Shown: positions 28,016 to 36,267 of the stretch, piece by piece
How positions within the stretch are numbered: position 1 is the stretch's first letter
Layout: each line of letters starts with the position of its first letter
Source: Eledone cirrhosa
Lineage: Eukaryota
Direction: 5' to 3'
Length of the DNA stretch: 64,000 bases
Assembly (NCBI GenBank): GCA_964016885.1
Contig: OZ024748.1
Coordinates: forward strand, 744,001 to 808,000
Translations under genes and position numbers: made by a program
The notes under the pieces: generated by a model
The model's input: the letters and a program-made list of their open reading frames with translations, nothing else
Told to the model about the DNA's origin: nothing
The model's database searches: none

Positions 28016-28470
28016 ATTAAACAAATGGAAATTACATTTATAAAACCATACTTATTTCATTATATATATTTCAGGGATATCATATTAAAAATATGGTATG
28101 CCCTCTTCAGATAAAATACAATATATAGACAGCTTTATAAATAAATTTGACATACCTTAGAGTTCACAACTTCCATTTAAAAAGTTATTACGGTAGTGAA
28201 AATGTTAAGGACGGTTAGAAAGAAAGACGGAGAGAAAAAAGGAGAAAAGAAAAAGAAAGAGCGGAAGGTGAAGAAGATGAAGAAATGTATGTAAAGAGAA
28301 AATCACCAAATGAGAGATCTATGAGGGAAGGGGGTACTGTAATTATTCATTTGTTTATTTATTTATTTAGTGTTAAGGATACGGGGAGAAATAAAAACAA
28401 AATAAAGAGAGGTAGATCGAGTAATATCTATTATACGAGGTGGGAGAGATAGATATAGATAGATATAGAT
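28015..28470 (-). mobile_element. Non-coding Penelope-like (pLTR-like) remnant between (TA)n arrays
   Basis: Pyrimidine-rich tract (on - strand) followed by a hammerhead; bounded by TA microsatellite on both sides. Confidence 0.55.
28053..28118 (-). ncRNA. Minimal type I hammerhead ribozyme (Penelope-type)
   Basis: UAUUUUAU-CUGAAGA-GGGCAUACCAUAUU(UUU)AAUAUGAUAUCCCU-GAAA-UAUAUA-UA-AUGAAAUA: 8-bp stem I, ~12-bp stem II, palindromic UAUAUA in stem/loop III, AUA site between 28061 and 28060. Confidence 0.85.
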
Positions 28471-30410
28471 AAATATATATATATATATATATATATATAT
28501 ATATATATATATAAATATATATATATATAAATATATATATAAATATATATATATATAAATATATATATAAATATATATATATATAAATATATATATAAAT
28601 ATATATATATATATAAATATATATATATATAAATATATATAAAAATATATATATAAATATATATATATATATATAAATATATATATATATATATATATAA
28701 ATATATATAAATATAAATATATATATATATATATAAATATATATATATAAATATAAATATATATATATATATATATATAAATATATATAAATATAAATAT
28801 ATATATATAAATATATATATATATATAAATATATATATATAAATATATATATATATATATATATAAATATATATATATATATATATATATATATAAATAT
28901 ATATATATATATATATATATATATATAAATATATATATATATATATAAATATATATAAATATATATATATATATATATATATATATATATAAATATATAT
29001 ATATATATATATATATAAATATATATATATATATATATATAAATATATATATATATAAATATATATATATATAAATATATATATATATATATATATATAT
29101 ATATATATATATATATATATAAATATAAATATATATATATATAAATATATATATATATAAATATATATATATATAAATATATATATATATAAATATATAT
29201 ATATATAAATATATATATATATAAATATATATATATATAAATATATATATATATAAATATATATATATAAATATATATATATATATAAATATATATATAT
29301 ATAAAAATATATATATATATATATATAAATATATATATATATATAAATATATATATATATAAATATATATATATATATAAATATATATATATATAAATAT
29401 ATATATATATAAATATATATATATATAAATATATATATATATATATATATATATATATATATATAAAAATATATATATATATATATATATAAAAATATAT
29501 ATAAATATATATATATATATATATATAATTATATATAAATATATATATATATATATAATTATATATAAATATAATTATATATAAATATATATATATATAT
29601 ATAAATATATATAATTATATATAAATATATATAAATATAATTATATTATATATATATATATATATATATATATATATATTTATATTTATATATATATTTA
29701 TTTATATATATATTTATATATATATTTATATATATATTTATATATATATATATATTTATATATATATATATATATATATATATATATATATATATATATA
29801 TTTATATATATATTTATATATATATTTATATATATATATATATATATATATATATATTTATATATATATTTATATATATATTTATATATATATATTTATA
29901 TATATATATTTATATATATATATATATTATATATATATATATATATATATATATTTATATATATATATATATATATATATATTTATTTATATATATATTT
30001 ATATATATATTTATTTATATATATATTTATATATATATTTATATATATATTTATTTATATATATATTTATATATATATTTATATATATATTTATATATAT
30101 ATATATATTTATATATATATATATATATATATATATATATATATATTTATATATATATTTATATATATATATTTATATATATATATTTATATATATATAT
30201 TTATATATATATATATATATTTATATATATATATATATTTATATGTATATTTATATATATATATTTATATATATATATTTATATATATATATTTATATAT
30301 ATATATTTATATATATATTTATATATATATTTATATATATATTTATATATATATTTATATATATATATATATATATATATATATATATATTTATATATTT
30401 ATATTTATAT
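28470..30410. repeat. (TA)n array whose interruptions switch from TAAA to TTTA near 29650
   Basis: Direct reading. Confidence 0.95.
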
Positions 30411-30990
30411 ATTTCGTTTCTGAATTTGTTTAGCAAGATTCTTTATCTGAAATCGTGTGTTGAAACCGATATTGTTATACTTTGGGAGGGTCATGTTGCC
30501 AATAAGAAACACACGCACCAGTTGCTTTCACTTTAATTTATTATATATTTATAAATTTACAAATTTATAAATTTCTGGTTGGTTGGTTGGTTCCACAACC
30601 AGATAGTTGTTTATATATATATAGTCATAGTTCTTTCGTCACACACTCTGTGACCTCTTCAGTGACTGGGGATTTCTTTCTTCGTTTCTGTGCCTTTCCT
30701 TTCTTCTATCCTACGCCATTTTGTTTGTGTGTGGGTTGCGTGCTCAGTTTGCGCATGCGCCACATCCGGGTGTCTGTGTGTGTTTGTGTTCATTTTTCTA
30801 TTTTTCTATTTATATTTTTCTATTTGTTTGTTTATTTATTTATTTATTGTTGGTTGGTTGTTTGTTCTATGTGTGTGTGAAATTTATAAATTTGTAAATT
30901 TATAAATATATAATAAATTAAATTGAAGTGAAAGCAACTGGTGCGTGTGTTTCTTATTGGCAACATGACCCTCCCAAAGTATAACAATAT
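30411..30990 (-). mobile_element. Inverted-repeat Penelope-like element, copy 1, with internal hammerhead
   Basis: Inverted arms 30469-30575 / 30879-30990; 58-bp unpaired extension 30411-30468; flanked by (TA)n; homologous to 52822-53275. Confidence 0.8.
30623..30667 (-). ncRNA. Minimal type I hammerhead ribozyme motif
   Basis: AGUCA-CUGAAGA-G-GUCACA(GAGUG)UGUGAC-GAAA-GAAC-UA-UGACU: 5-bp stem I, 6-bp stem II with one extra G, CUA site between 30628 and 30627. Confidence 0.75.
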
Positions 30991-34236: not shown

Positions 34237-35946
34237 TCACTTTCGCCAATCCACCGCTGCTTCAATTATTCCTACTACGGTGTACTTATGTAAATCGTAA
34301 AGTACAAATTTTTCCTCCATCTATTCCACGCTCAATTTTCGTACATAGTCCAAACATCCAATCTCGCAAAATCCGAAATCTGTATTTTTTGTTATCTATT
34401 TAAGGTTTAAATACGGTGTTTTTGTCGTATTGAACAGAACAAATCTTGCAGTTTTGCTTTTTGTTAAATCGCTTGTTAAACATTCATAACCTTCCAGCTA
34501 GCTACCCCACACCCCTCCCACCCGCCCCCACACACCACCATACTTAATACGTGGACCAATCATAAGCCAGAGCCCCCCCCCCCACGCATCACCATTATTA
34601 TTATTATAAGCCAGAGCCCCCCCCACCCCCACGCATCACCATTATTATTATTACGCGGACCAATCATAAGCCAGAGGCCTATACTATCGCTTGCCCGGTT
34701 GCCTTCGATATATGATGGATGGATGGATGGATGGACGGACTGCGGAATCCTGGAGAGTGGAAGGGAGAGAAAAATCTGGACGCTCAGAGCGAAAATGCCA
34801 AAGTTAAAGTCAAATTCACCTCGTGGACGAGAATGCGAGCACTCCTCTTTGTTTCGTCCGCGGATGGCTAACGTAACCCTATCTCCCCCCGCCCCCCACC
34901 ACCCCCACCCTCCAAACGCAACCCAAAACTTCAGAGTTGGTACCATAAATGTAGGCACCCTAAAGGGTCGCGCTAACGAGGTTGTAGAAATGCTTGAACG
35001 TAAGGAGGTCGATGTTTGTTGTATTCAAGAGACCAGGTGGAGGGGTGGGTCTGCTAGATTCATTGAGGGTAACAAACGATGTTATAAGCTTTTCTGGGTG
35101 GGAAACGACGCTGGGCTGGGTGGAGTAGGAATCATGGTAGCAGAAAAGTGGGCAGATAAGATAATAGACGTAAATAGAGTGAACGACAGAATAATTAAAA
35201 TAAGACTTGTCCTCAATAAAACTACGGTGACAGTAATATCTGCGTACGCACCCCAATCCGGACTGCCCGGCACTATAAAAGACAGATTCTATGAGACACT
35301 GTTGCTAACTACCTCCCAAATATCTGACAGTGACTATATAATTATTGCAGGCGACCTAAATGGTCACGTTGGACAACATTGTGACGGCTACGACAAAATC
35401 CATGGAGGCTATGGGTTTGGTACTAGAAATGAGGAAGGCTCCAGAATCCTGGAATTCTGTGATGCAAATAACCTAACTATCTGTAACACTAACTTCAAAA
35501 AACGTGACAATCACCTGATCACCTATAGATCAGGGGAACACACAAGCCAGGTAGATTATATCCTTACCAGAAGACGTGACAGAGTGTCTGTTGTAAACAC
35601 TAAATCCCTCCCCCATGAAGAATGCACCTCCCAACATAGACTGATAATTAGCGACCTCATAGTCAGGACGAGACGTACTCGACAGCAGAAGAGGACTATC
35701 CTCAGGAGGAAAATATGGAAACTAAAGGACCCCACAGCCAGAAATAAATTTCAAAGCATATTATTTGATGCTTTCGACAGTAAGGAAGAGCATCTAGAAT
35801 CGGACAATATAGAGGGACAGTGGGAATTTCTGAAAGCAAACCTGCTGTTGGCAAAAGACGAAGTCTGTGGCTGGAGCAGGCCTGTAAGCAGGAGGAGAGT
35901 AACTTGGTGGTGGAACAGTAGGGTGGAGGGGTCAATTAAGGCCAAA
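34237..35946 (+). mobile_element. RTE-clade LINE, 5' portion (3'-truncated); 5' boundary approximate
   Basis: Leader with short repeats (GGACCAATCATAAGCCAGAG units, GGAT tract) followed by an open APE endonuclease ORF. Confidence 0.9.
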
Positions 35947-35982
35947 GAGATAGTTTTTAAATATATCTCCTCTCAGTTATAA
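34795..35982 (+). CDS. RTE LINE apurinic/apyrimidinic-like endonuclease domain; ORF truncated before the RT; start codon uncertain
   Basis: Motifs GTINVGTL, IQETRW, SAYAPQ, AGDLNGHVG, VDYIL, SQHRL, then TWWWN; no internal stops; residues after ...IKAK are non-homologous. Confidence 0.85.
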   Translation: MPKLKSNSPRGRECEHSSLFRPRMANVTLSPPAPHHPHPPNATQNFRVGTINVGTLKGRANEVVEMLERKEVDVCCIQETRWRGGSARFIEGNKRCYKLFWVGNDAGLGGVGIMVAEKWADKIIDVNRVNDRIIKIRLVLNKTTVTVISAYAPQSGLPGTIKDRFYETLLLTTSQISDSDYIIIAGDLNGHVGQHCDGYDKIHGGYGFGTRNEEGSRILEFCDANNLTICNTNFKKRDNHLITYRSGEHTSQVDYILTRRRDRVSVVNTKSLPHEECTSQHRLIISDLIVRTRRTRQQKRTILRRKIWKLKDPTARNKFQSILFDAFDSKEEHLESDNIEGQWEFLKANLLLAKDEVCGWSRPVSRRRVTWWWNSRVEGSIKAKEIVFKYISSQL

Positions 35983-36267
35983 AAACTATCTCTTTCTCTC
36001 TATCACCCATCTCTCCCTCTCATCTCCTTCCCTTTTCACCCCCCCCCTCTCTAAATAAAATATTTTTCCCAATATCACACATCAATCTAAAACCACTTTT
36101 CATATGTTGATTTAAAACTGCACTATCAACAAGTGTTTTTTAGCCTTCATATCATGTTCTCCTGTTTTATCTGATGAAAACACAAATATTATTGCTTGAT
36201 GATGTTTGTTTTTGAAATGCGCATAATAAAATATATAGAACTCCTTTAACCATCTTTTGATCTTATA
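35944..36267 (+). mobile_element. Penelope-like remnant abutting the truncated RTE
   Basis: 16-bp inverted repeat 35944-35959/35980-35995, pyrimidine tract, hammerhead at 36163-36233, then (TA)n. Confidence 0.6.
36163..36233 (+). ncRNA. Minimal type I hammerhead ribozyme (Penelope-type)
   Basis: UGUUUUAU-CUGAUGA-AAACACAAAUAUUAU(UGCUUG)AUGAUGUUUGUUUUU-GAAA-UGCGCA-UA-AUAAAAUA: 8-bp stem I, ~14-bp stem II, palindromic UGCGCA, AUA site after 36225. Confidence 0.85.

Follow-up and report, generated by a model that had tools for sequence, protein, structure and literature searches.

The hammerhead motifs A and B, found in the 64,000-nt stretch of Eledone cirrhosa DNA analysed here (the window), most probably are minimal type I motifs located in terminal repeats of a related pair of Penelope-like retrotransposons (PLE) of the Hydra clade. 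A second copy of the motif likely supplies the pairing partner for the short stem III, which would account for the self-complementary segment carried by each family, and the families appear to drift between palindromes. The probability given to this reading is about 0.85. The hammerhead design with a palindromic stem III is already known, and the families described here are new members.

Motif A spans 28053..28118 (-). It contains an 8-bp stem I (UAUUUUAU at 28118-28111 with AUGAAAUA at 28060-28053), the core CUGAAGA at 28110(-), a 31-nt stem II and then GAAA, the stem III segment UAUAUA (28063..28068) and UA. Cleavage is predicted after 28061 (H17). When A15.1 and U16.1 are added, the segment becomes the 8-nt palindrome AUAUAUAU. 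Motif B (36163..36233, +) also has an 8-bp stem I (UGUUUUAU at 36163-36170 with AUAAAAUA at 36226-36233), followed by the core CUGAUGA at 36171(+), a 36-nt stem II and the arrangement GAAA-UGCGCA-UA, with predicted cleavage after 36225. Its stem III segment UGCGCA lies at 36218..36223, and a hand count of the first 100 among 23,436 B-context matches found it in 92. The positions of both motifs agree with an earlier note on this DNA, which had described their nearly identical stem I, different stem II and palindromes UAUAUA and UGCGCA.

The note had also placed UAUAUA near 52652 and UGUGCA near 49644, and both are present. The first belongs to the site 52657(+) in motif C (52652..52707, +), which shares the segment with A but has a different stem I, ACUGC/GCAGU. 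The second belongs to the site 49650(+) in motif D (49646..49701, +), a decayed copy, with stem I broken, of an old family. The segments of A, B and C are Watson-Crick palindromes, whereas that of D is self-complementary through G·U pairing. The note had omitted family E, which carries the non-palindromic GAAC. One family E motif lies inside the A-B interval (30623..30667, -, site 30662(-)), in a stub that forms an inverted repeat at ~30405-30990, and a second one at 53073..53115 (+, site 53077(+)) has the cleavage triplet UU.

The minimal type I hammerhead of PLE is characterised by CUGANGA...GAAA...UH together with stems I and II, and this arrangement was found in the window. For the core pattern alone 0.75 matches were expected, whereas 9 were observed (at 6 sites), which excludes chance as their general origin. 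The site at 22034 was set aside for lack of stems, and the weak match at 12397(-) was attributed to chance. Among the best 150 of 183 matches to the Rfam covariance models (E up to 1) there was no hammerhead, and these matches were to microRNA models only, on (TA)n. A stem-checked descriptor run on 1.4 Mb of evenly spaced pieces of the genome retrieved 119 matches, while the decoys gave 0 when the sequence was reversed and 0-5 when the cores were mutated.

The motifs reside in 3' stubs of longer elements. The family A stub (28013..28452, -), a pseudo-LTR end with its tail, lies between (TA)n arrays and matches by BLASTN the 3' ends of L111 and L112, two long copies that carry a reverse transcriptase-endonuclease ORF. 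Most of the 43 matches listed for a 171-nt family A query are 96-100% identical across its length. The family B stub (35959..36264, +) directly adjoins (TA)n to its right and, to its left, a truncated RTE-type LINE; it is 96.8% identical by BLASTN to L121, which contains an 821-aa open frame. The family C 3' untranslated stub (51532..52752, +) matches L130 by BLASTN, where 1,058 nt separate the hammerhead motif from a GIY-YIG frame upstream of it. The (TA)n-type microsatellite arrays (28449..34236, 27565-28017 and 36264-36969) are the insertion target class of the A-, B- and C-type elements, with a (TA)n run at most 150 nt from the cleavage site in 40/45 A, 63/65 B and 34/35 C matches. A (TA)n preference of Hydra elements is described in section 11 of PMC8557442.

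The ORFs of A and B are 48% identical over 806 aligned positions. Both contain an RWK-like N-terminal motif (RIRWRAF and RLRWTAY) and the DKT motif SDKTNNLY, and DKTNNLY was also seen in Hydra-1_Obim when compared by eye. The CxCX5C linker reads CYCRDRSKC, CNCRIKNKC and CNCRDPSLC, and at the C terminus a GIY-YIG is found. Pfam recognised the GIY-YIG in family C alone, below the cut-off (E 0.0037), and returned no match for the A or B ORFs; a solved-structure search returned none for the family A ORF. Direct repeats flank the ORF in L111 and L285, and the motif lies ~1.0-1.5 kb downstream of the endonuclease in several A, B and C copies; together these observations place the A, B and C motifs in terminal repeats that bound a Penelope-like ORF. 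The link between ORF and motif in families G, H and J is given by one locus each. On these sequence features the A and B stubs belong to Hydra-clade PLE, the accompanying protein tree being built from the families of this genome. Hammerhead-bearing copies number in the tens of thousands, and inverted DNA arrangements, seen as paired + and - matches, are very frequent. The RNA runs searched yielded no RNA of these elements, the best run holding 0.06 of the words.

The stem III segments carry the signature of RNA self-pairing. The enrichment of palindromes across copies, on which the earlier reading depended, is present: 69 of the 119 sampled matches are Watson-Crick palindromes, 16 are G·U palindromes and 34 are other segments, GAAC or close variants accounting for 10 of the 119. 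Among 12 distinct family segments, not all of them independent, 11 have a self-complementary centre of four bases; the shuffle mean is 3.6, and 0 of 200,000 shuffles reached 11. The 12 segments are the distinct ones of even length (4-8 nt) from 20 multi-member clusters, CG and the three odd-length segments, each from its own cluster, being left out; neither family A itself nor the CAGTTCTAGTCCTG clusters passed the stricter stem II filter used for clustering.

The clearest contrast comes from a mirror-image comparison. UAUGUA self-pairs as RNA, while its mirror image UACAUA does not. In 38,177 A-type contexts the former was counted 20,626 times and the latter 66 times, copy counts that reflect a few master elements rather than independent events. 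Mutation is symmetric in the controls, both in the CpG decay of the UACGUA family (11 vs 8 of 92) and at the neighbouring pair 2/5 (519 vs 441). The imbalance and the symmetric controls argue for a motif of importance to the element rather than a passenger, a point left open in the passages of PMC8557442 compared. The genome thereby adds unusually clean comparative evidence for a palindrome selected as RNA during transposition. Selection on the self-complementarity of stem III, the part of the earlier reading that stands, is well supported by these comparisons and is consistent with intermolecular pairing.

The states UAUAUA, UAUGUA, UACGUA, UGUACA, UGUGCA and UGCGCA were all found as family or subfamily states. 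UGUGCA had been read as a CpG-type change from UGCGCA; it is instead the commonest state of family D, where the first 100 of 259 matches, counted by hand, include 46 UGUGCA, 24 UGUACA, 1 UGCGCA and 1 UGCACA. The 46 UGUGCA against 1 UGCACA likewise speak for selection at the RNA level. Pair 2/5 shows no amplified G·U intermediate, which leaves UA..UA and UG..CA without a bridge between them; the idea that wobble pairs connect A with B all the way was dropped for this reason. The protein tree leaves 7 of its 12 inner forks open, the deep ones included, and therefore gives no direction of change between palindromes. One locus, L279, was kept out of this tree, having a motif like that of family F next to an ORF unlike that family's.

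The preferred reading is that the motifs act as dimers. A partial-tandem transcript would carry two identical motifs. These may fold as a double hammerhead, in which the 5' stem I strand of one motif pairs with the 3' stem I strand of the other and segment pairs with segment. Cleavage of the double hammerhead would then release unit-length RNA, and amplification would be restricted to masters whose segment self-pairs as RNA. Each motif would meet its own copy as partner, so any palindrome would serve. The families could thus drift between palindromes, the central pair passing through U-A, U·G and C-G. In the active fold, the dimer is predicted to be more stable than a pair of monomers by 12.6 kcal/mol for A and 19.9 kcal/mol for B. 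The motifs are predicted to be self-cleaving, and it is likely through the six-letter palindromes that two copies can pair. Dimer cleavage with the help of a palindromic stem III is a published model, as set out in parts of PMC4209133, PMC6765202 and PMC3088659 (Fig S8 legend). Such motifs are low in activity, even as dimers, according to the part of PMC4209133 consulted.

The earlier note went further and suggested that the palindrome could be a family-specific dimerisation code. Under such a code, palindromes and stem I would diverge under selection against cross-cleavage between families. Predicted heterodimers are indeed less stable than the mean homodimer by 12.6 (A:B), 11.7 (A:C) and 24.2 (B:C) kcal/mol; A and B have stem I in common and differ in stem III, A and C the reverse, and at least 12 distinct segments coexist. 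On the other hand, families A, A2, F, G and H use one interface (stem I with UAUAUA or UAUGUA) that covers 38,177 sites, although in the C-terminal protein region they are 53-87% identical to A and some sharers of UAUAUA and stem I only 53-61%. Within this group the hetero-minus-homo dimer energies are 0 to -1.5 kcal/mol, with no predicted homodimer preference. UAUGUA pairs with the UAUAUA and UACGUA families alike, and wobble states bridge groups (A2:J, -1.4). Family C has the UAUAUA of A at 45% identity, and family E has no palindrome. CUAG is common to two retrozyme-like clusters and CCGAUCGG to two clusters, and their stem I differs. A tandem transcript would moreover provide the partner in cis, leaving a barcode in trans unneeded. 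Since distant families have the same palindrome, a family-specific code is unlikely; it would be the more surprising outcome, and the data speak against it.

The families form at most a few compatibility groups. Coarse groups of this kind may exist as a by-product of divergence, A and B being a predicted incompatible pair, rather than as a selected barcode. It is doubtful that stems I and III sort the hammerheads of the genome into a few mutually incompatible groups, with trans cleavage inside each group and escape through a U·G central pair. If they did, the pairing groups would shape which elements parasitise or recombine with which. In the titles and abstract openings searched, none pointed to PLE hammerheads forming heterodimers or carrying a family code.

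Alternatively, each motif could work as a monomer whose stem III has two pairs and a tetraloop, the palindrome being incidental. Such a fold can be drawn and exceeds the minimum by only 4-5 kcal/mol in A and B, and the abundance of family E without a palindrome fits it. A monomer, however, cannot pair the central four bases, yet these are self-complementary in nearly all family segments and run through the U-A, U·G and C-G series, which makes the monomer very improbable. Still less credible is a palindrome kept at the DNA level, as a protein site, a hairpin or a product of inversion-driven conversion. The frequent inverted arrangements of the elements would suit it, but a DNA palindrome treats TATGTA and TACATA as equal, while the first alone self-pairs as RNA and is the one amplified, and DNA-level mutation is symmetric. 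A mimicry of the (TA)n target by UAUAUA, whereby the cleaved 3' end (predicted as UAUAUAUA in A and C, with stubs located in (TA)n) would anneal to nicked microsatellite DNA and prime reverse transcription, is very improbable and was rejected on the tail lengths, as copies extend beyond the cleavage site by 48-52 nt (21/45) or 136-138 nt (19/45) in A, 38-53 nt (33/65) or 132-139 nt (30/65) in B and 49-61 nt (32/35) in C, and B, with UGCGCA, is likewise located in (TA)n.

The dimer-based design agrees with several known systems, each compared in part. The type I core in pseudo-LTRs of metazoan PLE, the long helix II with an unpaired 5' base, the small palindromic helix III ('GAAAN Palind NU H' consensus), the many families per genome with covariation and the dimer model itself are shared with Cervera and de la Pena 2014 (PMC4209133). 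The segments here are 6-8 nt and stem II reaches ~60 nt, and relative to the parts compared the mirror-image counts, the G·U series and the cross-family compatibility are additions. The small dimer-cleaving hammerhead variants of Lunse, Weinberg and Breaker, as summarised in passages of PMC6765202 and PMC6466107, share the diminished palindromic stem III, the Penelope association and dimer cleavage; their paper (RNA Biol 14:1499) may already report palindrome covariation or heterodimer tests. Several repeat-type hammerheads of Perreault et al. 2011 (PMC3088659) have a palindromic stem III and loop III read as dimer base pairing, although the passages compared do not connect these with particular element families or with lineages of proteins. 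The natural series of six palindromes on similar scaffolds is ready for dimer- and cross-cleavage tests.

With the Hydra clade (Craig et al. 2021, PMC8557442, compared in part), the elements share a single ORF with RWK-like and DKT motifs, the CxCX5C linker, the GIY-YIG at the C terminus, insertion into (TA)n, hammerheads close to the 3' end and 5'-truncated inverted stubs with a tail. The families are new, the unit between direct repeats measures ~3.7-3.8 kb (L111, L285) against the typical <3 kb, and the tails are ~50 and ~135 nt against 30-40.

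The window holds nine matches to the hammerhead core pattern, against 0.75 expected; hammerhead was absent among the 150 of 183 Rfam matches listed. The motifs of families A and B are present with the palindromes UAUAUA and UGCGCA that an earlier note had described in the segment, the short stem III stretch between GAAA and UA. In A (minus strand) stem I lies at 28118-28111/28060-28053, the core at 28110 and the segment at 28068-28063, with a stem II of 31 nt. In B (plus strand) stem I is found at 36163-36170/36226-36233, the core at 36171 and the segment at 36218-36223, with a stem II of 36 nt. 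Family C (52657, plus strand) also carries UAUAUA, with a stem I unlike that of A, and family D (49650, plus strand) carries UGUGCA with a broken stem I, both segments as listed in that note; the list omitted family E (30662, minus strand; 53077, plus strand), whose segment GAAC is non-palindromic.

Motifs A-D are all repeats in the 3.0-Gb genome. Longer copies contain ORFs of 736 aa for A (L111, L112) and 821 aa for B (L121), 48% identical, with the Hydra-clade features given in section 11 of Craig et al. 2021 (PMC8557442). Compared by eye, the published Hydra-1_Obim protein has the same motifs as these ORFs; Pfam returned a sub-threshold GIY-YIG in C and nothing else. The motif can be tied securely to an ORF for A, B and C (several copies) and for the Penelope-like family F (direct repeats); for families G, H and J this link comes from one locus each, with the doubtful L279 left out. 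The A and B motifs are thus homologous and their elements related, and UAUAUA versus UGCGCA is a genuine two-pair compensatory difference. The direction of change is not readable, since seven of the 12 inner forks of the protein tree are unresolved.

The sequences TATGTA and TACATA are reverse complements of each other and are therefore treated equally by forces acting on DNA. As RNA, only UAUGUA self-pairs (predicted -2.2 kcal/mol, versus 0.0 for UACAUA). Among 38,177 sites in the A-type context, TATGTA occurs 20,626 times and TACATA 66 times, copy numbers that stem from few masters and do not count independent events; the first 100 sites, taken by hand, comprise 48 TATATA, 49 TATGTA and 3 others. 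The mutation controls are symmetric: a TACGTA family (that state in 62 of 92) has decayed to 11 TATGTA and 8 TACATA, and pair 2/5 shows 519 G·U and 441 A·C forms. Selection for stem III self-complementarity, as earlier proposed, is thus supported at the level of RNA self-pairing. In D, the first 100 of 259 matches include 46 TGTGCA, 24 TGTACA, 1 TGCGCA and 1 TGCACA; UGUGCA is consequently a family state and not, as had been suggested, a CpG-type change from UGCGCA. UGAUCA also occurs among the D cluster segments. Taken with the symmetric controls, these counts indicate a central pair of U-A, U·G or C-G on UA..UA and UG..CA backgrounds. At pair 2/5, by contrast with the central pair, the counts reveal no amplified wobble form, which leaves the A-B route bridged only in part.

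A descriptor with the segment unconstrained was applied to 140 evenly spaced 10-kb stretches and detected 119 motifs (reversed sequence, 0; six mutated cores, 0-5 each). Their segments comprise 69 Watson-Crick palindromes (37 of them CUAG, many in tandem arrays), 16 G·U self-complementary forms and 34 that are neither. Clustering by flanks and stem II only gave 12 distinct even-length segments, partly related to one another, with CG and three odd-length segments left out and family A itself missed by the stem filter. The central four bases, which cannot pair inside one hairpin, are self-complementary in 11 of these 12, against a shuffle mean of 3.6; none of 200,000 shuffles reached 11.

The A/B palindrome feature is real and of a kind already known. 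Passages of Cervera and de la Pena 2014 (PMC4209133) describe, for hammerheads of Penelope-like elements, a palindromic helix III, covariation between families and dimers of low activity, and others in Perreault et al. 2011 (PMC3088659) a palindromic stem or loop III in several ribozymes. A dimer requirement is stated in passages of two reviews (PMC6765202, PMC6466107), both citing Lunse et al., and dimer cleavage with a palindromic tetraloop in a passage on axolotl (PMC7229834). Among the papers listed in literature searches, none is evidently on mirror-image counts or cross-family compatibility; Lunse et al. may cover both.

Most likely, a partial-tandem transcript would bring two identical motifs together, and cleavage of the dimer would release unit-length RNA; the motifs are presumably transcribed, dimerise and cleave, although a search of RNA runs yielded none that was usable. 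An identical partner requires a palindrome and accepts any palindrome. The predicted advantage of the dimer over two active monomers is 12.6 kcal/mol for A, 19.9 for B and only 8.8 for E, whose segment varies as GGAC, GAGC, GACC and AAAC and whose dimer would carry two central A·A mismatches.

The geometry of a double hammerhead suggests that stem I has to form between copies, the 5' strand of each against the 3' strand of its partner, so that the interface would comprise stem I and stem III. The palindromes had been proposed as a family-specific dimerisation code, which agrees with predicted hetero-minus-homo dimer energies of +12.6 (A:B), +11.7 (A:C) and +24.2 kcal/mol (B:C). On the other hand, families A2, F, G and H have the stem I of A and the segment UAUAUA or UAUGUA, with energies of 0 to -1.5 kcal/mol, at C-terminal protein identities to A of 84%, 61%, 59% and 53%. 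UAUGUA also fits the UACGUA family (-1.4), A and C both have UAUAUA at 45% identity, and E is abundant though non-palindromic. The code is therefore not supported, and compatibility groups whose families cleave one another in trans are improbable. Mimicry of (TA)n by the cleaved end is ruled out, because copies run ~50 or ~135 nt beyond the predicted cleavage site and the cleaved end is thus not the insertion end.

These two 3' end points are fixed in families A, B and C, with similar numbers of each in A and B. A splice-donor-like GGTA(T/C)GT lies ~45 nt upstream of the core (window 28156-28150, minus strand; L286, L285, L283) in four of five aligned families, B excepted, and families with it have an AG in or directly behind the core. 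Were an intron spliced out there, it would take with it stem I and some of the core and so inactivate the ribozyme.

The 119 intact-looking motifs in the 1.4 Mb sampled (L131-L270) mean a density of about one every 12 kb, which would extrapolate to ~250,000 in the genome, a figure inflated by tandem arrays. Tandem retrozyme-like arrays with segments CUAG and CGCG occur at L202 (467-nt spacing), L220 and L267 (310-nt spacing). At L142, L147, L154, L226 and L266 the segment is the 14-nt CAG(U/A)..CUAG..CUG; this stem III is stable enough for a monomer, yet retains the CUAG palindrome in its loop. Clusters with a CCGANGA (U4C) core include L005:846(+), L207, L098, L156 and L249, and the one wholly of this type shows a palindrome-preserving switch, CAAUUG/CAGCUG.

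Of these Hydra-clade elements the window holds 3' stubs only, and those of A (28013-28452), B (35959-36264) and C (51532-52752) adjoin (TA)n arrays. Family E stubs with inverted repeats lie at 30405-30990 and 52824-53280, with a likely ORF start (MTLPKYNN) downstream on the same strand. AP endonuclease and RT frames at 34240-35945(+) and 53600-56520(-) belong to what we take to be RTE-type LINE fragments, the former cut off at the B stub; broken transposase frames at 39128-41003(+) are, from their motifs, presumably pogo/Tigger-like. A near-perfect DNA palindrome of ~100 nt (33825-33930), with (CAT)n arms flanking CAACGTTTAACGTCCGTGTTAAACGTTG, looks like two LINE/SINE tails head to head.
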